Below are positions 1 through 50,500 of a stretch of DNA of 64,000 nucleotides, piece by piece (the first letter of the stretch is position 1; each line of letters begins with the position of its first letter). Origin of the DNA: Thermoplasmatota archaeon (GTDB lineage: Archaea; Thermoplasmatota; Poseidoniia; Poseidoniales; Thalassarchaeaceae); NCBI GenBank assembly GCA_030828405.1, contig JAURCP010000006.1:12015-76014 (forward strand). Direction: 5' to 3'. Under the pieces are notes generated by a model. It was given only the letters and a program-made list of their open reading frames with translations. It made no database searches and had not been told where the DNA came from. The position numbers and the translations under genes were made by a program.

Positions 1-1
1 T

Positions 2-277
2 GGTAAAGGTGCAGAGTTTACCGATCCAATGACTGGAGAAACTATTGATTTATCTAAAGCAGCAACGTCTAGTGAAACTTCATCTCTAAGGCATCTGAAT
101 GAAGTTGTTCCCGAAACAGTTGCCCAAGGTACACTTTGGGTCGGCGACTACCTATGTCCAAAATGTGATGCAGATAGAATATTTGTTGTACTAATGCAGA
201 CTAGATCTTCTGATGAACCGGAAACAAAAATCTGTACTTGCGAAAGTTGCGGATACAAGTTCAGAGAGTATCAATAA
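2..277 (+). CDS. tfs: Transcription factor S / RNA polymerase subunit M (TFIIS-type C-terminal zinc ribbon); 5' truncated by window edge
   Basis: The reading frame is open to position 1. The C-terminal CPKCx(n)QTRSSDEPxTKICTCESCGYKF matches the TFIIS-type Zn-ribbon with the acidic DE hairpin. Confidence 0.7.
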   Translation, partial: GKGAEFTDPMTGETIDLSKAATSSETSSLRHLNEVVPETVAQGTLWVGDYLCPKCDADRIFVVLMQTRSSDEPETKICTCESCGYKFREYQ

Positions 278-373
278 TATACAATTTTTCAGACTTTTTG
301 AGTAATAATGCCTAATCGCTGAAACATAAGCATGAATAACCCGCAGTCAAGGGTAGGTTAAGAAAGGGGTGGC

Positions 374-1126
374 ATGATGTTGAGAGTCACAGCAAATACG
401 CAATTAATGAGAGAAATAGTAGATCTACTTTCTGTGTTAACAGAAGAAGCAAAATTAGTATGGAAAGAAAATGGATTGCAAATAAATGTAGTTGATGGGT
501 CGCATGTTGCTTTACTATCAGCAACCATAGGTGATGCATGTTTTGAGACATATGAAGTTGAACCAGTAGAAATTGGACTTGAACTTATAAAATTGAGAGA
601 CCTATTGAGCCTTGCAGGACCATCTGATTTAGTAGAATTAGATTATGATGAAGCAATAGGAGCCATTAATGTCAGAGTTGGTGCAGTACACCGAATACTT
701 AGAGGATTAGATACATCGACAATGAATGAACCAAAAATGCCACAATTGTCATTTGATAGCAGAGCGACAATAGATGCTTCCAAGCTCTCGAATGCTATCA
801 GAGCAGCAAAGTTAGTTGGAGAATTAGTTGACCTAAGTCTAGATTCAAATCAGATGAGTGTTTCAGTATCAAATGAAGCAGGAGAATCAGTAAACGTTAG
901 ATTCGATGCAGGAGAACTTAGCGAGTTAGTGGCGCCAAACCCTACGCAATCAACATATTCATTACAGTTCTTAGATCCTCTATCAAAAAAATTAGCAAGT
1001 GGATTAACTGATTCAATTACTTTAGAATTTCAAGATAAATACCCTTTAAGACTTACATGGAATAGTAATGATGGCGGGGCTAGTTGGATATATTTCCTAG
1101 CTCCAAGAGTTACTAATGATCCATGA
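374..1126 (+). CDS. pcn: DNA polymerase sliding clamp PCNA
   Basis: 250 aa with two-domain PCNA-like architecture, in an archaeal context, immediately downstream of tfs. Confidence 0.75.
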   Translation: MMLRVTANTQLMREIVDLLSVLTEEAKLVWKENGLQINVVDGSHVALLSATIGDACFETYEVEPVEIGLELIKLRDLLSLAGPSDLVELDYDEAIGAINVRVGAVHRILRGLDTSTMNEPKMPQLSFDSRATIDASKLSNAIRAAKLVGELVDLSLDSNQMSVSVSNEAGESVNVRFDAGELSELVAPNPTQSTYSLQFLDPLSKKLASGLTDSITLEFQDKYPLRLTWNSNDGGASWIYFLAPRVTNDP

Positions 1127-1170
1127 TTAATCATCGATGTTATTGAAAGTGTAGGCGCTTACGGTAAGCC

Positions 1171-2259
1171 GTGAGTGAACCTTCAGTTACTGTCATTATT
1201 CCCAGTGTTAGGAATCATGAGGAGTTAGATATTGTACTAAAAGGTCTGAAAAAACAGACTTATAGTGGACAAATCGAAACAGTAGTTGTTGGTCCTACAA
1301 ATGATCCAGGAAAGGACATCAGTCTAGAGAACAATATTCGATTTATTGATGACGAAGGTTCGAGAACTAGAGCTGATGCATGTAACATAGCAATAAAATC
1401 TACAAGTTCGGAACTGATACTATTCACTGATGACGATGTTATTGTTCCAAAAGATTGGGTTAAGAAATTAGTTTCATGGTTTGAAGATGAGGAAGTGAGT
1501 GGAGTTGGAGGACCTAATTTTGCTCCAGTTGATGAATCCACAATGTGGCAGCAAGTAATTGATGTTGCATTCTGTAGTACAATATTTACTGCTGGAACTA
1601 ATTATGGTAAAGTAGGTAAGAAAGACCTAGATGAAGTCAATCAACTTCCTGGAGTTAATTGTGCTTACAGGCGCTCTGTTCTAGAAGAAGTAAATGGATT
1701 TGATGAAGGCGCTATTGGAGCGGAAGATGTTATGCTTGATCATAGAATCAGGATGACTGGAAAGAAACTATGGACAGATAGAACAGCCATTATGTGGCAT
1801 AGAAGAAGAGACCTTTCAAGAGTTAAGAAACAAATTAGGAACTATGGACTTGTGAGAACTTTAGCCAGTCATCAATACCCTGAACTAAGAGCACCTACAC
1901 ATACTGCAGTTGCATTTTTCCCCCCAATAGTAATAGCGGCATTTGGATTCTTTTTTTGGGGCCTAGCAAATGGGGGATTGGCATGGCCTGATTTCTGGGA
2001 TATTCGATTATCTACAGTACCTATGGGCCTACCTAGATTAGGAGTTCATACATTACCAACACTAATTCTATTGTATAATATATTAGCATGGTATGGATCT
2101 TGGAAAGGCAATTCCCCCAGTAAATCAAAGAAGACCATCTTTCTTTCTTCAATAGCAACTTACACTTTACATTGGAACTATGGAATGGGAGTATTAACCG
2201 GTTGGATTAGAATCTTAAGAGGGAATTCGGGACTTCAGATTGATGATAGGAATAGATAA
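1171..2259 (+). CDS. Family 2 glycosyltransferase (GT-A) with C-terminal transmembrane region
   Basis: N-terminal VIIPSVRN...FTDDDVI (DxD) GT2 signature, and hydrophobic C-terminal helices. Confidence 0.65.
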   Translation: MSEPSVTVIIPSVRNHEELDIVLKGLKKQTYSGQIETVVVGPTNDPGKDISLENNIRFIDDEGSRTRADACNIAIKSTSSELILFTDDDVIVPKDWVKKLVSWFEDEEVSGVGGPNFAPVDESTMWQQVIDVAFCSTIFTAGTNYGKVGKKDLDEVNQLPGVNCAYRRSVLEEVNGFDEGAIGAEDVMLDHRIRMTGKKLWTDRTAIMWHRRRDLSRVKKQIRNYGLVRTLASHQYPELRAPTHTAVAFFPPIVIAAFGFFFWGLANGGLAWPDFWDIRLSTVPMGLPRLGVHTLPTLILLYNILAWYGSWKGNSPSKSKKTIFLSSIATYTLHWNYGMGVLTGWIRILRGNSGLQIDDRNR

Positions 2260-2307
2260 TTTATATTATTGATTTTTCAAAAATCAAGTTATTGATATAA
2301 CCAGAAC

Positions 2308-3468
2308 GTGATTCTGAAGTGTATGCATCCGGAACAACTACGCAGGGTTATACTAAGGATTGTAACATCTCTTATGAATCTCATAATTGGCCCTTCAGGT
2401 GCTTGGTATGCTCTTGGATTAGAAGGTCTGTGCTTGTACATTATCGTTAATGTATTTACTAAATCTGTAGTTGCAGAGATTTCGGCTCTAAACGAAAAGA
2501 TATCTAGATTGGGATATAGAATATCTCCTATCTTTCTGATTTCTGCAGGTTTCTTGCCACTTATCTCATCCAACTGGTATACTTTTGTGATTCTTATACC
2601 TATTCTATTGGCAACATATGTGGGATTATTTTGGACAGGCTTTCATGGAATTAGAAAACTAAGAACTTTAAAAACTGAAAGAGAATCAGTAAGATCCTTT
2701 CAACATTATGAAATTGTAAGTACTTTATTGGCTGCTTTTTTAGTTTTATTTCTTAAACAAGTTGAGATGGTAAGTTATGCTGGATATATAGGCTCGATTC
2801 TAGCTTTCATTGCATTGGTAATTCCAATGAAAATAGGTGAAGGGACAATCAGAATATCAAGTGGCGATATGTTAAATCAAGAAGTAATACTTGCAAGATT
2901 AACCACAGGTTCTTTCGGAATCATTGGTTTTTCGACAGTTTGGTGTATGAGGATAATTGCTTTGGAATACGCAGGAATTTCAGGGATTGCGGGGATGGTG
3001 GCTCTTTCCAGTTTAGGAGGACATATTATATCTAATTTGAATGATAAAAAACTGAGGCCAGAATCGGCTGATAATAAAAACTGGATATGGGGGACTAACA
3101 TAGTAATAACTGGTATTCTTATTATGATTGGAAGTTTAATTTTAAGGCTTGAAGAATTTTTCCTAACTGGTTATCTGATTACAAGAGGGGGCACGTCTGG
3201 TATTTTACATCCTTTAGAAGTAAGAATTTCTGGAGAATTATTAATCGGAGATGGAGGTGAAATTGGGCTAAGAGAGAGAATAAAATTCAGAACACAAACA
3301 AAAATTATGTTTTTTTATATTATCTGCAATTATATGTTGTACAATATAATTGGAGAAATTAATCTTATTTTATTAGTCTTATTGCCTTTGATAACATCAT
3401 TATATTGTTGTAAGTTAAATTTGGAGATTATTGATTACTTAAAGACTCACCAACGGGTGCAAGGTTGA
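2308..3468 (+). CDS. Polytopic integral membrane protein (hypothetical)
   Basis: 386 aa with many predicted TM helices. No recognisable catalytic motif. Confidence 0.5.
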   Translation: MILKCMHPEQLRRVILRIVTSLMNLIIGPSGAWYALGLEGLCLYIIVNVFTKSVVAEISALNEKISRLGYRISPIFLISAGFLPLISSNWYTFVILIPILLATYVGLFWTGFHGIRKLRTLKTERESVRSFQHYEIVSTLLAAFLVLFLKQVEMVSYAGYIGSILAFIALVIPMKIGEGTIRISSGDMLNQEVILARLTTGSFGIIGFSTVWCMRIIALEYAGISGIAGMVALSSLGGHIISNLNDKKLRPESADNKNWIWGTNIVITGILIMIGSLILRLEEFFLTGYLITRGGTSGILHPLEVRISGELLIGDGGEIGLRERIKFRTQTKIMFFYIICNYMLYNIIGEINLILLVLLPLITSLYCCKLNLEIIDYLKTHQRVQG

Positions 3469-5251
3469 GTTTAGATTTAGATAATTCCAATTTAATTTTA
3501 TTTTTTCTAGAATAAAGAAATAAACTCTGAGATTTAGGTTTATTTAATCCAGTAAATTCGCCAAACATTTCTCCTACTAGATGTAACTTAATTTTGTTAT
3601 TCTTACCCAATTCTTCAATATCTAAAATCCAACTAAATATCAAACTTCGAAAAATATTATCGTTACTTTTTGGATTCTCAAGAGCGGTATCTATCGAGAG
3701 TTCGGCTCTTAAAAGAAAATTATCAATCTCTGATAGGAATATTTTCATTTCTCCTAAAATTTCTTTAGATAATTCGTTTTCTAATTCAGAGCGATCTTCT
3801 GTCCAGATACTAGATCTGAATGTTGTATTCTGATAATTTTCTTTCCAGTTCTTATTTGTTATCCTTGAATCACTTAAGAATGAATTAATCTTCATGAAAA
3901 GTTGTGCTATTATTACTGATATATTGATTATTCCTGTGTAATTATTCTTACTTTCTTGAATATTTAACGCTGATTTAGCGAATCTTATTTCTTTTAATAC
4001 ACTCTCAATTATACTGCTAGTTTCATTTCGAACTATAGATTCCCTGAAACCTGAATCTTTAGGAGATGAACGATTGAAATCCAATCTGACAACTTTCATT
4101 GTTGTAGTTTTACAATAGAAATTTGTAAGATTCTTTGCTTCTGAACCAATGGTTGTAGATAAAAACGATTTAATAATCAGCCTCTTTTCTTCTTTTTTAT
4201 CTGTTTTTATCCTGTTTGAGGGGTTATTTTGATGTTCCAATAACACATCGAGACAATTCAGAATATATCCAGATTTCTTTTCTGATGACTCAAGATTTTT
4301 TCTTTCTTTCATTTCCATGTTTTCAAAATATTTATTTAAATCAGGATTTAGTGTCTTTCTAAAATCCCTAATTTTCTCTTCTATTTCATGTACTGGTTGA
4401 AGCCTAATTTTCTTATTTTTCCTCAATACCCATAATGACCACCAATAGTAGGCCTTGGCCCATACAGAATCATCTTCACGACATAATTCATCCATTTTTT
4501 TAATATAAGAAAATATATTCTTATAATCAGTTTCCCAATTATTACCAGATGGAATTAACCTTCTATTATTAGTCAAGTGGTATTGCATTAAAATTAACAT
4601 ATCAAGATGCTCAGTTTTTGTAGCACTATTATTGCGTATAGCTTTAAACCCATTTTTACTTTTCAAATTATCAAACTTAAACCAAGCAGCATCTAAAATT
4701 TTGTCAATTAATTCAAGAACTTCGGGGTTCTCAGAAAAACCCACACGAATTCTTCTGACCTGTTGTATTTTCGCTACAATCAGATATGTTGCGCAAATAT
4801 CTTTTGTTTCAACACCGTGTAATTTTTGTGTAATTTTCGATCTGAAATAATAACTATTGATTAAATCCTGTAAAGAATCTCTAGTGTAAGGATCATCTAT
4901 TTGCTGAAACCATTCATTCAAACATGGCCTTAATAATTTGTAACTACCCTCTGGATGGATTAAGTTATGTGATTGACCTATTAATCCCGATATATCACGT
5001 CTATTCCTTGAAGTGAAATTTATTATCAGCATTGAATCCTCAACACCGAAGTAATCTACCATGATTTTAAAGCTCTCTAAGGCTGATAATTTTGTTTTAG
5101 GTTCAGTGGTTAAATCTGAAAATGATTTATTATATTGCTCTGCAGCCTTAGCCCAATAAAGAATTAAATCTTTACTAAATTTATCTCTTTTCTCATTGTT
5201 AGAATAATGGAGATTACAGAAATCTTCACAACTTAACCTCTTGGACACCAT
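3428..5251 (-). CDS. Large hypothetical protein (607 aa, Lys/Asn-rich), flanks the accessory island
   Basis: Long intact ORF with very AT-rich codon usage and no motif I recognise. Confidence 0.5.
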   Translation of the reverse strand: MVSKRLSCEDFCNLHYSNNEKRDKFSKDLILYWAKAAEQYNKSFSDLTTEPKTKLSALESFKIMVDYFGVEDSMLIINFTSRNRRDISGLIGQSHNLIHPEGSYKLLRPCLNEWFQQIDDPYTRDSLQDLINSYYFRSKITQKLHGVETKDICATYLIVAKIQQVRRIRVGFSENPEVLELIDKILDAAWFKFDNLKSKNGFKAIRNNSATKTEHLDMLILMQYHLTNNRRLIPSGNNWETDYKNIFSYIKKMDELCREDDSVWAKAYYWWSLWVLRKNKKIRLQPVHEIEEKIRDFRKTLNPDLNKYFENMEMKERKNLESSEKKSGYILNCLDVLLEHQNNPSNRIKTDKKEEKRLIIKSFLSTTIGSEAKNLTNFYCKTTTMKVVRLDFNRSSPKDSGFRESIVRNETSSIIESVLKEIRFAKSALNIQESKNNYTGIINISVIIAQLFMKINSFLSDSRITNKNWKENYQNTTFRSSIWTEDRSELENELSKEILGEMKIFLSEIDNFLLRAELSIDTALENPKSNDNIFRSLIFSWILDIEELGKNNKIKLHLVGEMFGEFTGLNKPKSQSLFLYSRKNKIKLELSKSKLNLAPVGESLSNQ

Positions 5252-5584
5252 AGCTGTACGTAATAATTAATACTTATAAATGTTAATATTTATCACCTCA
5301 AATTGAATAAAAATATAAAAAAGATTAATAATAAATAGTTATTTTTAGGCGATAAATATGCCATTTGAGAAATAATTGTTTAAAGTTGTTTTTATAAAAT
5401 TGAATAATATAAAAAATCATTGGGCATATATAGGGCCGTACCGTATTATAGTATGTAGTGCACCCCGGCATTCGTTTCACAAAAATGTGGGGGGAAGGGC
5501 AGAAACTGCTTCACCACTCCCATGAGTGGAGATGGAGTAGTTTATGACGCCAAATTGGTGAAAGAAAAAGGATAACGTAAAACT

Positions 5585-5614
5585 CTAGAGGGTGTAAGAA
5601 ATGACCACCTCTAG
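5585..5614 (+). promoter_or_regulatory. Imperfect hairpin (ctagaggg-tg ... cacctctag) upstream of first small-peptide gene
   Basis: Inverted repeat read directly from the sequence, about 45 nt upstream of an AAGGAG Shine-Dalgarno. Confidence 0.4.
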
Positions 5615-5659
5615 TTTCAATATGAATAATAAATTATAAAAAAAAAGGAGATAATGAAT

Positions 5660-5746
5660 ATGGGATTTCTAAAATGGCTTTTACTCGGATCAGGTGCTGC
5701 TTACTTTGAACACACAGTAAGCGGTGACGATGACGATGATTGTTAA
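5660..5746 (+). CDS. Small hydrophobic peptide 1 (28 aa, MGFLKWLLLGSGAAYFEHTVSGDDDDDC)
   Basis: AAGGAG SD sits 9 nt upstream of the ATG. N-terminal MGF/LL motif is shared with two downstream paralogs. Below the 60-aa track threshold. Confidence 0.5.
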   Translation: MGFLKWLLLGSGAAYFEHTVSGDDDDDC

Positions 5747-5799
5747 CGTAAAAATAAATAAAAAATGACTTTCTAAATGAATAGGAATTTAGAGTTCGC

Positions 5800-5816
5800 A
5801 TCTCGGACACAGAGAT
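5800..5816 (+). promoter_or_regulatory. Conserved hairpin atctc-ggacaca-gagat upstream of peptide 2
   Basis: 5-bp stem with a 7-nt loop. The paralogous copy upstream of peptide 3 (gcctc-gggtaca-gaggc) keeps pairing through compensatory changes. Confidence 0.45.
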
Positions 5817-5840
5817 AAAAATACAAGGAGTGTGATAAAA

Positions 5841-5963
5841 ATGGGTTTGTTTAGAGCATTGTTCTGGACGGGAGCTACAATAGCGACTGGAGGATTGGCG
5901 CTTGCTTTGCTTCCAAACGACTGGGACGGTATAGACGGATATGACGGTGGCTGTGACGAATAA
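5841..5963 (+). CDS. Small hydrophobic peptide 2 (40 aa, MGLFRALFWTGATIATGGLALALLPNDWDGIDGYDGGCDE)
   Basis: ACAAGGAGTGTGATA SD context nearly identical to peptide 3. TM-like N-terminus, acidic C-terminus with Cys. Confidence 0.55.
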   Translation: MGLFRALFWTGATIATGGLALALLPNDWDGIDGYDGGCDE

Positions 5964-6026
5964 TCGCCACATACACTGTTTCGCAAATGCGATGACTTGC
6001 AGGATGAATATGGATCTTGCCCCCGT

Positions 6027-6043
6027 GCCTCGGGTACAGAGGC
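6027..6043 (+). promoter_or_regulatory. Conserved hairpin gcctc-gggtaca-gaggc upstream of peptide 3
   Basis: Same position and shape as the 5800-5816 hairpin, with compensatory base changes. Confidence 0.45.
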
Positions 6044-6069
6044 GACACAAACAAGGAGCGTGATATGTT

Positions 6070-6186
6070 ATGGGATTGCTAAAAGCAATCGTAGGCGGAA
6101 CTGTTGGTTTGGTCGTGGGCACAATGACTTGTGCACCAATCACTGGAATGATTGGTGGTGCATTTGTAGCTCAAGACTGGGAATAG
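6070..6186 (+). CDS. Small hydrophobic peptide 3 (38 aa, MGLLKAIVGGTVGLVVGTMTCAPITGMIGGAFVAQDWE)
   Basis: ACAAGGAGCGTGATA SD 11 nt upstream. Gly-rich TM helix, acidic C-terminus. Confidence 0.55.
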   Translation: MGLLKAIVGGTVGLVVGTMTCAPITGMIGGAFVAQDWE

Positions 6187-6281
6187 TTCAATGATTACAT
6201 GTGTAAATGTTGGCATGATAATGACATTTGAGAAGGTGCAAGACCTGGAAAAAAATATGAAGAAGGAAAGGAGGTAACGTA

Positions 6282-6491
6282 ATGGGAAACATAACGACAA
6301 AAGTCGAAATTGCTGACCATACGGGGCACACCACCGCTTTATTGACTCAGAGAGAGACTGTTGATCTCGTATCTGACAATGAGCGTTGGGTTTTCGCTGG
6401 AGGACAAATGATTGAGCCAGAAGAATTGGCTGAAGCAGATTGGTCTACAGTTGGAACCGTGAGAGTGATGCCGCGTATTGTGTTCGGTTGA
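6282..6491 (+). CDS. 69-aa protein, possible ThiS/MoaD-like beta-grasp (ends ...MPRIVFG)
   Basis: AGGAGGT SD. Length and the C-terminal pattern (hydrophobic-x-hydrophobic-FG) resemble sulfur-carrier/Ubl proteins. Higher GC than surrounding genes. Confidence 0.45.
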   Translation: MGNITTKVEIADHTGHTTALLTQRETVDLVSDNERWVFAGGQMIEPEELAEADWSTVGTVRVMPRIVFG

Positions 6492-6583
6492 TTGGCTGAT
6501 TATTTGCTCGAAAGAGCCCGGATTAACGTAAGTCAAGATAGGGTATACTCTATGTTGATGCAAAATAAAAAGGAGAAAATAAA

Positions 6584-7087
6584 ATGGAAACAAAACAAAT
6601 AAATAATGAAAAAATAATAGAAAATGAAATAGATTGGAAACAACACATACGAGATGTGCATAATGATATGGCAGATGATATAGAATATCTCTTCCCTAAC
6701 AATTCCACTGAAGCCTTTATGACAGCAATATGGAAAATGTCTGTTGACTTATTAGAAAGGATAGAAGTGATGGTCATCGTCGATAATAAAGATGATTTGT
6801 ATATCAGTAGCGGCACACCATCGTTAGTCTCGTTCAAAGATCATGAGGATGAATTAAAAATTGGAGATAAAATGAAGTTGCCACTGAAATGTTGCATCCA
6901 TACACACCCTTCAGGTAAAGCATACTTTAGCGATACTGATTGGAATACAATTAACACATGGAAGAGCGATATTGAATCATGCATTGTACTAGGTAAAAAT
7001 GAATATTTAGCATATAATCCTAAATCTAAATTAGCTAAAATGGTTCACTATGGGCTTCTTGAGAACAATTTGAGAGGTGAGCAATAA
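6584..7087 (+). CDS. JAB/JAMM (MPN+) metallopeptidase domain protein
   Basis: Canonical JAMM motif HTHPSGKAYFSDTD (HxHx7Sx2D). AAAGGAG SD. First gene of the coupled operon. Confidence 0.75.
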   Translation: METKQINNEKIIENEIDWKQHIRDVHNDMADDIEYLFPNNSTEAFMTAIWKMSVDLLERIEVMVIVDNKDDLYISSGTPSLVSFKDHEDELKIGDKMKLPLKCCIHTHPSGKAYFSDTDWNTINTWKSDIESCIVLGKNEYLAYNPKSKLAKMVHYGLLENNLRGEQ

Positions 7088-7311
7088 TGATTGAGGATTT
7101 AGTTATGAAAGATGATATTAGAATGATTATTGAATTAATAGAAGATAAGGGGTATGATTTAGATGAGGAAACAATTTCCTCATTAACAAAATATATTGAA
7201 ACAAATTTATCTTCATTGTGCAGAATCAATGAAATTTTAACTGGTATTACTGCTTACAAGAATCTTATCAAACAGGAAGAAGAAAAAATCGAAAGTTTAG
7301 GTGGTGTTTAA
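7087..7311 (+). CDS. 74-aa protein ending in LGGV; candidate conjugation tag or adaptor
   Basis: Start overlaps the JAB stop (TAATG). C-terminal diglycine followed by one residue. Predicted largely helical, so the fold is uncertain. Confidence 0.5.
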   Translation: MIEDLVMKDDIRMIIELIEDKGYDLDEETISSLTKYIETNLSSLCRINEILTGITAYKNLIKQEEEKIESLGGV

Positions 7312-8076
7312 ATGGATATTAACGAAGAAGAATATACGCCAGAGAGAAAGAATGGAATTTTCAGATTTAGTATTCCTAATTTAGATGCACACAATAAATC
7401 ACTTGAATGGATTGAGTCTGAGAGGAAAAGAATGGGGGCGGAAATTGATTGTATGTTAGAGGATGGATACGACTCAAGTAGGAAATGTCATATTTATGTC
7501 AATGGGAGAGAGTCTGGAATTAATTATAGATTGACATTATCTTTTGAATCTAAAATTGCAAATCTATTATCTAAAAGAATTAATGAAGTTGAATTGAGTG
7601 ATAGAAATCTAAAATCAATTTTATTCACATTTCAAAAATTGATTCATTTCGAAACACATTGGTATGATCATTCGGAAGGGCGCTGGCAGCATATTTGCTT
7701 AGATGTGAAACCTTCTGTTAATCATCCATTTTGGCCAGGAGACCATATTGTTTCTGTAATGAATTGTTTGTCTGAAGACATGACTTCAGTACTTGATAGA
7801 GATATGAAAACTTTAAGAAAAGCAATGACTAAAGCACTTGTAGTCAGTTGGTTCCAAGGCGATAATTCAGATATTATGGGATTTAATAAGGTAAGTCAAT
7901 ATGTAGAGTGGTTAATTCAATTAGAAGAAACAGATAGTGAATTTTCATTTGCAAATAAGAGAGATTTGATTTTAAAAAATATAAAAAATGATTGGGGATA
8001 TTGGGTAGAATCACAAAAAACAAAGCAAATGAAGTTATATGAAAACGTGTTTTCTAGTTTGGAGGAATATCAATGA
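7312..8076 (+). CDS. E2 (UBC)-like protein
   Basis: NHPFWPGDHIVSVMNCL resembles the UBC HPN...C(L) active-site region. It starts immediately after the stop of the upstream gene, and GGTGGTG acts as an SD. Confidence 0.45.
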   Translation: MDINEEEYTPERKNGIFRFSIPNLDAHNKSLEWIESERKRMGAEIDCMLEDGYDSSRKCHIYVNGRESGINYRLTLSFESKIANLLSKRINEVELSDRNLKSILFTFQKLIHFETHWYDHSEGRWQHICLDVKPSVNHPFWPGDHIVSVMNCLSEDMTSVLDRDMKTLRKAMTKALVVSWFQGDNSDIMGFNKVSQYVEWLIQLEETDSEFSFANKRDLILKNIKNDWGYWVESQKTKQMKLYENVFSSLEEYQ

Positions 8077-8744
8077 AAGATGTACTGGATATAGCAATAG
8101 TTGGAGTTGGAGGGATTGGTTCGAACCTCGCATCATTAATTGTGCCATCTCTATCTCAAGGAGATTTATCACAGAGATTTTCAAAAATAAATATCAATCT
8201 ATATGATTCAGATGAAGTCGAAGAAGAAAATATATTTCATCAGAGATTTAATCAATCAAATATCGGTGAAACAAAAGTTTTGGCTACAAAGAAAAACTTA
8301 TCATCTTTTGAGCATGATAAATTAGAAATCGTCCCACATGGAAAGGATGTTCGAGAGAAAGAAGATATTGAAGATAATGACCTAATAGTGGTTTGTGTAG
8401 ATTCTTCAGATGCTAGGATAGTAGTTCATTCAACAAACTCAAAATGGTTAGATCTAAGATGTAGAGGAGATAATTTCATGAGTATAGATTATACTACAAA
8501 GAAAAATATTATCAAATCAATTACCGATATCGACCAAAAACCCGGTTCTTGTCAGTATGAGGGAGCTTTAGAATCAGGTAATATTCAATTTGGTTTCATG
8601 TACGCTGCATCCTTTGGGGCTCAATGGGTGATACAAAACCTTAGAGGAGAAAATGAAGGAAATAATGTGTTGATGCCTTATCCAAGATCAGAAAGTATAA
8701 CATTTGGGACATTAGGTAATTTTGAGAAAGAGGAGGGAAGTTAA
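8073..8744 (+). CDS. Minimal E1-like (ThiF/MoeB/UBA superfamily) adenylyltransferase
   Basis: IAIVGVGGIGSNLA Rossmann motif, DSDEVEEENIFHQRF (D-D-V-E..N..Q) adenylation motif, LIVVCVDSSDARIVV, and a PGSC cysteine. ATGA overlap with the E2-like gene. Only 223 aa and lacks CxxC zinc motifs. Confidence 0.65.
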   Translation: MKDVLDIAIVGVGGIGSNLASLIVPSLSQGDLSQRFSKININLYDSDEVEEENIFHQRFNQSNIGETKVLATKKNLSSFEHDKLEIVPHGKDVREKEDIEDNDLIVVCVDSSDARIVVHSTNSKWLDLRCRGDNFMSIDYTTKKNIIKSITDIDQKPGSCQYEGALESGNIQFGFMYAASFGAQWVIQNLRGENEGNNVLMPYPRSESITFGTLGNFEKEEGS

Positions 8745-8896
8745 TGTCTTGGATAGTTAGGTGTGCATTTTGTGATGAGAAAATTACTATTGGTAAAAAT
8801 CAGTTCAAGAAAGACAAAAATCCATTAACTGAAGAAAGTGAATATGTATGTGCTCATTGTTATCAATCTTTTATTGGCGATCTAGACTCTTATTAA
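8744..8896 (+). CDS. 50-aa zinc-ribbon protein (CAFC...CAHC), not in the ORF track
   Basis: ATG overlaps the E1-like stop (TAATG). Two CxxC pairs spaced about 26 residues apart. 3' end overlaps the convergent gene by about 26 nt. Confidence 0.45.
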   Translation: MSWIVRCAFCDEKITIGKNQFKKDKNPLTEESEYVCAHCYQSFIGDLDSY

Positions 8897-47561: not shown

Positions 47562-50500
47562 CTAATCGAAATCAGAATTACGTAATACCATTAAAATACC
47601 AGCAAATGATAAGCATAATACAATTAGTAAACCAATTATGATCAACACTGGTCTATTGTCTAGTATCCAGTTATCTGAAATAGATTCGTCAGTTTTATCT
47701 AGTTTAATTATTAAACTTTGTTCAGCCGAATCTGTTGTAGAAAGGAAGATATCAGTCCCTCTCACAAAAATTTCTATCTCGCCATTAGGCAAACTTGATC
47801 GGGCAAAAATCTCTAAAGAATATACTCCATCATTGGCGTTTTTATCAACACCAAGTCCATCATCTTTCATTAAAATCCAGTTATTTGACTCACCTATGGG
47901 TGCTAATCTACCCATTTTTACTTGAACAGAAGATAAACCATCGGGATCAATCATTACAATTTCCAGTACTTGAGAAATTGGATCACCGGATTGAGGTACT
48001 GATACTGTATCAGTAATATCGTTCCCTCTAACAATTGAATAATTAACAAAAGCAGGAGCCTCATTCTCTATAATCAAAATAGAACTTATTTCCTCCCCAT
48101 TTACAAAAGAATTAGTTATCAATCTAGAAGAATCATTTCCATCTGTCAATCTAATGGGAACCAACCTTTCGCCAGGAGCGATACTCGATGGAACCTGGAA
48201 TTGGCCCACCCAACTTGAGTCTATCAATGAAAGAGGTACTGATTCGCCACCAGCACTGATTAATTCTAATGAAACAGAGTTTACTCCGTGGCCATCATTT
48301 GCTGAAATTGATACATCCACCATATCTCCTCTTTTCACGACATTAGGTACAAAACTAATAGATGTCATTACTGGAGCAGGATTAAGGATATTAATTTCTG
48401 AAGAAAATAACACATTTTCCCAATAATCAATAATTTCTATTTCAACAGTTTTATTGCCAAAATCAAGACCATTTGCGATTATTAGTGAAGTCCAAACATC
48501 ATCATGAATAACACTGTCTCCAAATAATCCTCTATCCGATAATTCAACCTTACCCAATCCGAATTCTGACATGTCTACAGATACGGAGATGATATCATTA
48601 TCTATATCTTCAACAAAGATTTCGAGATGAGATTGACCACCTTCGGCATATAAAAATCCCTCTCTAAACTGAATTTTTTCTATTGACGGGGGAGTATTTT
48701 CTTCAGCAACAATTATTGAAGGTGAACGAATTTTATCTAAAACTTGAGTCTCATGAAAGTTGACTTGGCTATCCAATAGAGGTAAATTTATTGAACGATT
48801 AACATGATGAAATAATCCGGCCAATAAGCCTTCATTAATTACACTACCAGATGCTTCTGTATTTTCTCCGTAATCCCCAATCCAGTCGATTACGACAACA
48901 TTATGCCCATCAATATTTACTTCCCTAGTTTCTTGAACTACAATAGATAAAACAAGTTCTAAATTTCTAGATAAGATTATTTCATCTCCTGAAATCAGAA
49001 TCTCAGGAATCACGCCTGTTTCTTTCGTAATAGGTGATGATTCAAATGAGCTGGCGGCTGGCCTTTCAGGTTCTATTTGTATTGGAGACTGTTCGGGAAA
49101 ATAATCTGATTTCGAACCATTATCTTCAATATATTCATATCTAATCACAGGGTTTTCCCAGTAAGATTGAGGTACTATATATTCATATGTCAAATTATGT
49201 TCAGCATTTATTTCTTCGTCAACAATCATGAAAACTGAAGAAACATTCAGCCAATTTTCATTTCTAATTTTATTAACCTCAAAGTCATTACCAGTATAAT
49301 TCTTCTGAATAACCTTATCGTCGATAAATCGAATTATTCCAAATGAACCAGAAACATCTCCATCATATGTTCCATCTACTCTTAATGTGTCATGAAGAAT
49401 AAATCCATTTCTATCTTCGAAATGTAATTTTTCGATGGTCCCGTTAGTATAGATATATGGTGCTTCTTCAGAAATAAGGGCATTAAATTCTGCATTACCG
49501 ATATACTTCAAAAGGTGCTCTTCTTGAACTCCATTTATCCACAAATCTTTGTATCTGAACTCTTCTAACTCAAGATCAATGTTTCCGTCTGCAAATTCAA
49601 TAAAACTTGTAGCATCAGCTTCTAAATTTATATTTTGGTATTCGCGAATGCCATCTGAATCAAATGACTCGAAAAAGAATGATGAAATATCACCTGTTAT
49701 GAACATGGAATCATTGTCAGAATTTTCTAACAATTGTAATATGCCATATCCATCAATTAGCAAATGTTCAGTGTAGCTATCTTGTGATAATGTACGATTA
49801 TACATTGCTTCCGTTACATTAACTGAAATATCCAATCCGTCCTGAAAAGTGGATAAGTTTCCTTTGCCACTCATTTCAAACTCCTGCCCAACTAATTCTT
49901 CATCGTAATATGTCTGATTAAGCCAAACCTTATCTAAATCTAGTTCAATATCCATATTTTCAAAATTGGAAAGTTCAAAACTTCCAAATCCTAATTCGTT
50001 TGATACGAGGTTGGGGCCTATTCTTTGCTGCCACCCTCTGCCTTCAAAGAATAATTTAGAACTGGTTTCGGATGTACCCAATATATTGTTTTGCCATGTT
50101 CTATTACTAGTTATTTCATGGTCTGCTATTGGCTGATTCCAATTTGTTACTCTGATAAATCTACTACAAGATGCTTCTAAAGTCTCAACTGAAATCTCAA
50201 TTTCATCTTTGAAGATAGGCTCTTCTGGAAGAATAATATCAATTTCTCCACCTGCCACAACTATATTCGAATTAAATTCATCACCGATTGTTTGATTATC
50301 ACGTAGATGGTTTATCGATGTTTCAACTAGATGAGGAGTAGATCCATTTCCAAATGAAGGATAGAAGGTTACTACATATCGATGTGTTATAATAGAATCA
50401 TAGGTTGAAAAATTACTATCAATGTCTACACTTTCAACATATGTTACTCCCCAATCTGTAAGAATCTCGCATTCAATAGATTCATTTTCTTCTGCTGAAA

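Follow-up and report, generated by a model that had tools for sequence, protein, structure and literature searches.

A stretch of 64,000 nucleotides (nt) of contig JAURCP010000006.1 from a Thermoplasmatota archaeon, referred to here as the window, contains a Poseidoniales (Marine Group II) operon in which a leader is followed by genes for three small peptides (A, B and C), a 69-amino-acid ubiquitin-like protein (Ubl), a JAB peptidase, a 254-amino-acid protein and an E1-like enzyme. The octamer TAACGTAA occurs four times at the head of this operon, and it is judged modestly probable that these copies, instead of being repeats of a single operator, contribute to the RNA-level punctuation of a polycistronic mRNA that is heavily structured. 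The copy between the Ubl and JAB genes, designated site 4, was shown by comparison of related loci to be the form that a deeply conserved RNA linker motif, not described before, takes in this family. Two predicted hairpins clamp the motif.

Occurrence of the octamer in the window

Both strands of the window were searched for exact TAACGTAA. Four copies were found, all of them on the + strand and within 959 nt (5573 to 6531), and none elsewhere. The original prediction, which had been made from the letters of the sequence, had reported four copies within 1 kb, and this was confirmed. Its coordinates were right for copy 1 (site 1, 5573 to 5580), and those of copies 2 to 4 were one base off or one base too long; the exact matches lie at 5744 to 5751 (site 2), 6275 to 6282 (site 3) and 6524 to 6531 (site 4). 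Copy 1 is 80 to 87 nt 5′ of the peptide A ATG (5660, or 5654), copy 2 includes the peptide A stop codon (TAA, 5744 to 5746), the final base of copy 3 is the A of the Ubl ATG (6282), and copy 4 begins 33 nt past the Ubl stop codon and 60 nt ahead of the JAB ATG (6584). The earlier statement that each copy marks a gene boundary described a real pattern, with a copy at four of the five boundaries of the leader-to-JAB stretch; the boundary between peptides B and C has none.

Taken by itself, the window provides suggestive and not overwhelming evidence for the cluster. From the local composition, 0.038 copies were expected on one strand of 1.35 kb, where 4 were seen, and shuffles of the whole window contained 1.14 copies on average, with four copies reached in 2 of 100. 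Eight different 8-mers, mostly A/T runs, attain 4 copies per kb in the region. The nonrandomness that had been claimed is real, and the chance estimate behind it had ignored multiple testing: when every + strand 8-mer was considered, at least 4 copies in 1 kb with none elsewhere were obtained in 2.5% of 200 local dinucleotide shuffles. One-mismatch variants of the octamer were at background (45 seen versus 43 expected). The tetramer ACGT showed an observed/expected ratio of 1.06, that is, no avoidance genome-wide, so the cluster is not a contrast effect; restriction-site avoidance was ruled out as the cause of the octamer's contrast, given the expected frequency of ACGT.

Further occurrences of related words were recorded. 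A fifth ACGTAA (TGTACGTAAT) is present at 5256 to 5263 on the + strand, beside the start of a divergent gene for a 607-amino-acid protein, and is not kept in related locus L036. Five of the 11 + strand ACGTAA copies of the window fall within 5258 to 6531. A perfect palindrome TTACGTAA lies at 47578 to 47585, 20 nt past tRNA-Gly(GCC) and within the 3′ end of a convergent 1,001-codon open reading frame (ORF) that had no Pfam match.

Strand and position confinement in related loci

Homologues of the 254-amino-acid protein (58 to 98% identity) and of Ubl were used to gather a total of 61 related loci (L-numbers below). The identical region was present in eleven contigs that came from different metagenomes. 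Across the first 55 loci (400,753 nt) TAACGTAA was found 98 times on the operon strand and 0 times on the other, always in the leader-to-JAB interval and at homologous positions, and the six later, more distant loci contained no exact copy. The octamer is therefore not a word that is common elsewhere at similar density, the outcome that the original prediction had named as fatal to it: there is no copy elsewhere in the 64 kb or outside the leader-to-JAB interval in the 55 loci, and the 98-to-0 confinement rules out a composition artefact. Much of the comparative octamer signal is attributable to shared ancestry.

Site 4 is the linker of a two-hairpin intercistronic element

The octamer of site 4 is at the centre of the linker CCGGAUUAACGUAAG (6518 to 6532, + strand). 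This linker joins hairpin 1 (GCUC-GAAA-GAGC, 6506 to 6517) to hairpin 2 (GUCAAGAUAGGG-UAUA-CUCUAUGUUGAU, 6532 to 6559) in a 59-nt Ubl 3′ intercistronic element (6503 to 6561, + strand), conserved as TTTGCTCGAAAGAGCCCGGAT-TAACGTAA-GTCAAGATAGGGTATACTCTATGTTGATG. Variants of site 4 in the family are TTACGTAA, TATCGTAA, TTATGTAA and TAATGTAA; octamer positions 2 to 4 are the least conserved, and the GTAA (GUAA), the next G/T and the flanks are fixed. In the alignment of the element 95.9% of cells are paired, and the pairing of hairpin 2 is kept via G·U to A-U changes, which make sense on + strand RNA only.

A covariance model of the element (R1), built from the close family only and with site 4 itself in the training set, matched 6503 to 6561 with 86.5 bits (E = 2e-17), its sole significant + strand match in the 64 kb. 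In distant loci, R1 rendered near-top matches at the expected spot (E values of 1e-3 in L049, 0.12 in L057, 1.5 in L060, 2.2 in L051 and 4.8 in L045). No R1 match with E ≤ 10 was obtained at sites 1, 2 and 3 (5540 to 5615, 5730 to 5800 and 6260 to 6300).

Conservation of the linker extends well beyond the close family. Six more distant Ubl lineages (L045, L049, L051, L056, L057 and L060) retain the ACGUA(A)G core; their Ubl proteins are 57 to 68% identical to that of the window, and their loci range from AT-rich to G+C-rich. The distant loci L044 and L054 lack a Ubl-downstream spacer and were uninformative. After the Ubl stop codon, the seven deep lineages have a common order of hairpin 1, ACGUA(A)G linker, hairpin 2, A-rich tract and ribosome-binding site (RBS), with hairpin sequences and lengths that are unrelated among them. 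Their linkers are CCGGAUUAACGUAAG, CCGAACUACGUAAG, UUCUGAAUUACGUAAGGC, CAGAUCCACGUAAGG, ACGGAAUUACGUAGA, UGACGGAAUUACGUAGAA and GACGGAGAUACGCAAAC, giving a consensus of about GGAWUWACGUARG, about 50 nt from the next cistron, and the linker was the sole anchor of a MAFFT alignment of eleven sequences. The extended motif is present once per locus, always behind the Ubl gene and never 5′ of other genes.

The cistron that follows the element depends on the gene arrangement and may be JAB, a MORN gene, peptide A or peptide B. The MORN gene is an extra gene of about 121 codons located between Ubl and JAB, whose product contains, by reading of the sequence, MORN-like repeats and a zinc ribbon (L030, 3291 to 3655; L036, 3306 to 3670; also L023). 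It lies between two copies of the site-4 element, which is duplicated around it in L029-34, L036/37 and L023.

An extension of hairpin 1 in which the stop-codon region pairs with UAAC was rejected, the variants at octamer positions 2 and 3 being uncompensated. A scan for intrinsic terminators gave 0 terminator-like sites in 5200 to 6700.

Site 3 is part of the Ubl initiation region

Site 3 lies in the spacer from the RBS GGAGG (6270 to 6274) to the Ubl AUG. The sequence GGAGGTAACGTAATGG, at positions −14 to −1, is invariant in 19 distinct family sequences, and the spacer of distant operons reads AACCGAA, AACCGGA, ACCUAGA or AACCAUA. These comparisons showed site 3 to be an invariant RBS-to-AUG spacer, placed within an initiation region that is predicted to be structured (6270 to 6332, + strand). 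The region consists of the Shine-Dalgarno (SD) sequence, octamer and AUG (6270 to 6285), an inner hairpin CGAC-AAAA-GUCG (6295 to 6306) and the invariant codons 13 to 18 (CCAUACGGGGCACACC, 6317 to 6332).

In the RNAalifold prediction for a 163-nt segment, GGAGGU, CGUA and UGG pair with GCAC.CC, UACG and CCA of codons 13 to 18, respectively, and the fold of the initiation region has a minimum free energy of −19.2 kcal/mol (z = −3.0). The inner hairpin shows a synonymous compensatory change, with CGAC-AAAA-GUCG in 5 and CCAC-AARA-GUGG in 4 of the 9 folded sequences. Third codon positions are invariant in codons 10 to 18 (0 of 9 varying), versus 28 of 51 varying in codons 19 to 69 (Fisher p = 0.0024).

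Three ways of tying the octamer copies to other partners or functions were tried and rejected. For competition between sites 3 and 4 for the UACG of Ubl codons 13 to 16, the duplex with site 4 had an energy of −13.1 kcal/mol, many windows of the operon did better (to −21.7 kcal/mol), and the pairing was absent in L057 and L060, which retain the motif. Pairing between octamer copies via the self-complementary ACGU core gave duplex energies of merely −3.7 to −8.4 kcal/mol. As a stop signal of unannotated small ORFs, the octamer contains a real stop at site 2 alone, and the ORF that ends at site 3 is out of frame in relatives.

Sites 1 and 2 are lineage specific

Sites 1 and 2 were limited to the window lineage plus L036 and L037, which have one gene arrangement in common. 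Site 1 sits in GGAUAACGUAAA, flanked by a leader-end hairpin (5548 to 5560) and by a 32-nt hairpin directly 3′ of copy 1 (CUCUAGAGGGUG...CACCUCUAG, 5583 to 5614, + strand), which was found in minimum-free-energy folds and is kept with changes in L036. Its layout, ahead of peptide A, matches that of site 4: hairpin, GGAUAACGUAAA, hairpin, A-rich tract and RBS. The 3′ flank of site 1 resembles that of site 4 (repeat D5, 71%), and its 5′ flank resembles that of site 3 (repeat D2, 76%). In each of the three arrangements that include peptide A, its gene is preceded by [T/A]ACGTAA together with a hairpin. With moderate confidence, and with part of the case shown, we take site 1 to be a paralogue of the site-4 element that has diverged, or else a recombinant of it.

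On the 3′ side of site 2 there is an A-rich tract followed by a hairpin (5772 to 5793), and the corresponding position reads TAAACTTAA in L019, TAAAAAAA in L021 and TAGTAATA in L042. The sequence at the peptide A stop (site 2) is specific to the lineage and probably incidental.

Proposed role and points that weigh against it

A role in mRNA processing or stability together with translational control is what we infer for these elements. The hairpin-linker-hairpin element would constitute a processing or protein-binding point at which the enzyme cistrons are uncoupled from the 5′ products that are needed in abundance (peptides and Ubl). In this scheme, the upstream fragment would be shielded at its 3′ end by hairpin 1, and the downstream fragment at its 5′ end by hairpin 2. 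The fold of the initiation region would throttle the translation of Ubl, and a putative factor would read ACGUAAG.

Several results weigh against the proposal of RNA punctuation. Covariation in hairpins 1 and 2 is weak, the close family varying little; two pairs were changed on both sides, which was matched by 55 of 500 shuffles. The predicted single-strandedness of the motif is moderate (0.22 to 0.88). At site 3, the fold of the full cistron prefers other partners (codons 13 to 18 with codons 61 to 66, and the SD with codons 10 to 13), the pairing of the RBS with downstream codons being common to both predicted folds, and the CGUA:UACG pairing, whose bases are invariant, is not established. 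Similarity of site 1 to sites 3 and 4 is about 56 to 62% outside the octamer, and site 1 was not recovered by R1 (E > 10). Independent constraints do not explain why sites 3 and 4 are identical at all eight bases, and site 2 is left unexplained.

Alternative explanations

It is unlikely that one sequence-specific RNA-binding protein or endonuclease reads UAACGUAA at all four boundaries. Such a factor would account for the finding that each of the four copies is in a linker at a cistron boundary and belongs to the mRNA strand, for an 8-base identity that is hard to obtain from independent constraints (0.038 copies expected per 1.35 kb) and for the deep conservation of the ACGUAAG core at one site. 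However, sites 1 and 2 exist in a single arrangement, distant operons keep site 4 but lose site 3, and three of the eight positions vary freely at site 4. Furthermore, the gaps to the next AUG are 0, 52, 79 and 89 nt, so that a single mechanism would have very different effects from one site to the next, and cleavage at site 3 would separate the RBS from the AUG. The original prediction had also allowed for an RNA processing signal; the evidence supports a signal at the RNA level for site 4 and, plausibly, one for site 1. A doubtful extension of the same idea is that ACGUAAG (here UAACGUAA) might be the word recognized by a dedicated, sequence-specific factor, either RNA binding or RNA cleaving, by which the polycistronic mRNA is punctuated at cistron boundaries, an operon-specific code with a logic comparable to that of Cas6 processing of CRISPR transcripts or of mitochondrial tRNA punctuation. 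If true, such a code would set the ratio of peptides and Ubl to conjugation enzymes.

Recombination is a less probable source of the four copies, in which case the octamer would be a microhomology or core site for the duplication, deletion and reshuffling of peptide and Ubl cassettes, identical by descent and without a function of its own. The order of A, B, C, Ubl and the extra MORN gene does vary among close relatives, copies 1 and 2 bracket the peptide A cistron and copies 3 and 4 the Ubl cistron, and site 1 is chimera-like, with the 5′ flank of site 3 and the 3′ flank of site 4 (D2 and D5). A leader-to-B junction in L019 also resembles a site-4 variant. Against this, flank similarity is weak beyond the octamer, Pfam revealed no recombinase in the island, and the inserted MORN gene, although it has the site-4 element on both sides, is flanked by a repeat of about 55 nt and not of 8 nt. 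Site 4 and both hairpins are intact in all arrangements, which argues that this is not a breakpoint, and the deep conservation of ACGUAAG argues for selection.

Chance combined with hitchhiking was considered improbable to the same degree. Site 3 would be kept with the initiation region and site 4 with the larger element, sites 1 and 2 arising by drift in A-rich, TAA-rich spacers. The 2.5% of shuffles that reproduce the window-only event after the all-8-mer correction, the lack of enrichment of one-mismatch variants and the restriction of sites 1 and 2 to a single lineage are in agreement with this explanation. They have to be set against the four copies where 0.038 were expected locally, the absence of any copy from the other strand and from the rest of the 0.4 Mb, and a layout at site 1 like that of site 4.

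The original prediction had named a dedicated regulator acting on a near-palindromic site as one of two possibilities. This claim was not sustained: conservation is asymmetric and limited to one strand, which fits RNA and not a palindromic DNA operator, sites 1 and 2 are found in a single arrangement, and site 3 is lost in distant loci. No helix-turn-helix (HTH) or other DNA-binding Pfam domain (E ≤ 0.1) was detected in the eight island proteins scanned, a set that left out the three small peptides. The presence of a T7-like RNA polymerase gene beside some homologous islands prompted the idea of an internal promoter; a promoter for such a polymerase was rejected, since the motif is found once in each locus and no gene for the polymerase was detected among the window ORFs scanned. 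Scans for sigma-70 promoters gave background counts, from a bacterial model that is not applicable to Poseidoniales. A DNA-level site, either a dimeric-factor operator on the near-palindrome TTACGTAA or an internal promoter for which the T7-like polymerase is one candidate, is very improbable: the inferred ancestral core TTACGTAA/TACGTA is palindromic (L019, L045, L049, L057 and L060), a polymerase gene with the Pfam domain PF00940 flanks the island in L015/L016/L022 and L045-48, and a conserved word of 13 nt between variable flanks has the look of a protein site, but the left half varies while the right half is fixed, the deep lineages keeping ACGUA(A)G and not the left half, the other strand never carries the octamer, each locus has a single extended motif, which is not found 5′ of other genes, there is no HTH among the island proteins scanned (an AsnC-type neighbour exists in L015-18 only), no PF00940 match was found among the five window ORFs of at least 500 amino acids scanned, G+C-rich lineages are without TATA-like sequence near the motif, and the flanking hairpins with G·U pairs point to RNA.

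Other structured RNA elements of the operon

Besides the elements that contain the octamer, other predicted RNA structures were observed at the same locus. At the operon head, a structured leader (5433 to 5560, + strand), which could be aligned across four lineages, ends just 5′ of copy 1 and is a candidate for a new cis-regulatory RNA. Five of its predicted pairs show changes on both sides in the four lineages, and its fold has a z value of −3.2. The leader contains a hairpin P1 at 5463 to 5494 and a long helix from GGCAGAAACUGCUUCAC to GGAGUAGUUUAUGACGCC.

Hairpins with a GGRYACA loop precede peptides B and C (5799 to 5817 and 6027 to 6043, + strand) about 20 nt 5′ of their RBSs, and are also present in the distant L049 (at 87 and 322). 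The 7-nt loop is common to five compensated stems (CUUC/GAAG, UCUC/GAGA, CAUC/GAUG, CCUC/GAGG and CACC/GGUG), a covariation clearer than anything involving the octamer. A pre-Ubl hairpin occurs in the compensatory forms AAAUGU/ACAUUU, AAACGU/ACGUUU and AGAUAU/AUAUCU.

Rfam searches of the whole window at the gathering threshold returned two tRNAs only, and at permissive E values nothing with E < 0.3 was found in 5200 to 6650. The best matches were weak, namely, SNORD35 (E = 0.35), inside the Ubl ORF, and DUF2815 RNA (E = 1.7), from site 4 to the JAB RBS.

Proteins encoded by the operon and its neighbourhood

The octamers are at the head of a low-G+C island, which also encodes the divergent 607-amino-acid protein and a leader of about 400 nt. 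Archaeal genes nearby encode PCNA, a TFIIS-type zinc-ribbon protein, TBP, fibrillarin and Nop.

The genes of peptides A (5660 to 5746), B (5841 to 5963) and C (6070 to 6186), all on the + strand, were identified as ORFs with homologues. Their products form three families of small, hydrophobic, Gly-rich peptides, all beginning MG[FL][FL][KR]. The C termini in the window are DDDDDC (A), DGIDGYDGGCDE (B) and AQDWE (C), and those of the B and C families are DGIDGYD(D/G)(D/G)C(DE) and AQ[DE]WE, respectively; the tails are acidic, and in A and B a Cys stands at the C terminus or close to it. Close relatives differ in the number and order of the peptide genes. In several peptide B and C genes (L030, about 2553; L036, about 2793; L011-14, about 5060; L022/L024/L028), representing at least three lineages, ATA replaces the ATG start of relatives and the RBS is intact, reflecting either recurrent pseudogenisation or the use of a non-ATG start.

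The Ubl gene (6282 to 6491, + strand) encodes a protein ending in ...RIVFG. Its AlphaFold model (predicted local distance difference test score [pLDDT], 81.7) shows the beta-grasp order of elements, and its best PDB fold matches were ubiquitin-like domains, with weak E values (7e-3). The C terminus is FG in the window family and YG in L049, with no residues beyond, and more distant relatives (L051, L045, L056, L057, L060 and L044) end in GG or in GG plus one or two residues. The beta-grasp model, the fold matches and the GG-ending relatives together identify the 69-amino-acid protein as a Ubl. The JAB gene is missing from several of those more distant operons.

Downstream of Ubl, on the + strand, are the genes for JAB (6584 to 7087), a 74-amino-acid protein (7087 to 7311), the 254-amino-acid protein (7312 to 8076), the E1-like enzyme (8073 to 8744) and a 50-amino-acid Zn-ribbon protein (8744 to 8896). 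JAB was assigned from Pfam Prok-JAB (24.8 bits, just below the cutoff of 25) and the presence of the HxHx7SxxD motif. ThiF of Pfam matched the E1-like enzyme at 2.3e-13, and the PADLOC E1-E2 models matched the E1 part. The operon thus combines a beta-grasp Ubl whose last residue is Gly with an E1 of the ThiF type and a JAB peptidase, the set by which a prokaryotic ubiquitin-like conjugation operon is recognized.

The 254-amino-acid protein had no Pfam, PADLOC or PDB sequence match and no relative on viral contigs, and its structure model had a pLDDT of 40. It possesses invariant Cys59, Cys129 and Cys152 and the motif HWYD..GRWQHICLEV, which we take to resemble an E2 active site. As a lead, the protein might be E2-like (UBC fold).

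In two distant lineages, a gene for a T7-like single-subunit RNA polymerase (PF00940, about 1,270 to 1,350 amino acids) adjoins the Ubl islands, at 1 to 3213 on the − strand in L015/L016/L022 and at 1 to 1609 on the + strand in L045-48; a SAP domain accompanies it in L015/L016. Alternative neighbours are an Rpb1-domain protein in L049 and a TFIIB-type zinc-ribbon protein in L045 and L056. This association with a polymerase is unusual for archaeal contigs and could be a sign of a mobile element. L015 contains a direct repeat of about 100 nt in two near-identical tandem copies (about 3226 to 3420), positioned between the polymerase gene and a gene for a 333-amino-acid membrane protein.

With regard to the window as a whole, GATC was strongly depleted (130 seen versus 293 expected, a ratio of 0.44), and AGCT (0.65) and CGCG (0.61) were also low. 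Restriction-modification pressure may underlie these depletions.

Significance and comparison with known systems

The surface ocean holds abundant, uncultured archaea of Marine Group II, about whose post-transcriptional gene regulation, to our knowledge, almost nothing has been established. Among the papers searched, none links Poseidoniales with ubiquitin-like proteins. In a small space, the locus brings together RNA elements that are conserved and undescribed (the leader, the GGRYACA hairpins, the Ubl initiation region and the two-hairpin linker motif), attached to an unusual ubiquitin-like conjugation operon whose tiny hydrophobic peptides form three families. Should the ACGUAAG element serve for processing or binding, it would provide a handle on archaeal mRNA processing and on the modifier-to-enzyme ratio of ubiquitin-like systems; if not, the octamer would be a modest curiosity.

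Intercistronic stem-loops and processing elements are known to set differential expression, as in the hairpins of Rhodobacter puf, the processing of E. coli papBA and the hairpins after precursor genes of lantibiotics and other ribosomally synthesized and post-translationally modified peptides. As in those systems, the hairpins of site 4 come right after genes for small products needed in abundance and before enzyme genes, their stems covary (weakly within the close family), and the element is strand specific. It differs from them in the word of about 13 nt, GGAWUWACGUARG, between two hairpins, in having no U-tract and no terminator-like site, and in its archaeal host.

Helices of mRNA that sequester an RBS or a start codon operate in RNA thermometers and in the translational operators of ribosomal-protein and phage coat/replicase genes. 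Similarly, the Ubl RBS, and in one fold also the AUG, pairs with downstream codons, and synonymous sites are frozen. In contrast to those systems, two alternative folds are predicted here, and the octamer is merely a family-specific spacer inside the region. The elements also resemble Rfam cis-regulatory families as short structured elements in 5′ untranslated regions and spacers, with no family at threshold.

The PAR-bZIP/E4BP4 sites of eukaryotes are palindromic, TTACGTAA-type protein-binding DNA sites. The octamer shares with them an ACGT core in an A/T context, with perfect TTACGTAA in some lineages, but its conservation has no dyad symmetry, and it occurs in a single orientation, has no cognate DNA-binding protein found and belongs to another domain of life.

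As for the operon itself, bacterial Bil systems are related ubiquitin-like operons. In prokaryotic Ubl-E1-E2-JAB operons (Iyer, Burroughs and Aravind 2006, PMC1779556), as in the operon described here, a small beta-grasp protein whose C-terminal residue is Gly is encoded together with an E1 of the ThiF type and a JAB peptidase. The Poseidoniales operon departs from them in that its E2 is putative only, three peptide families precede Ubl, Ubl ends in FG and not in GG, and the lineage is archaeal.

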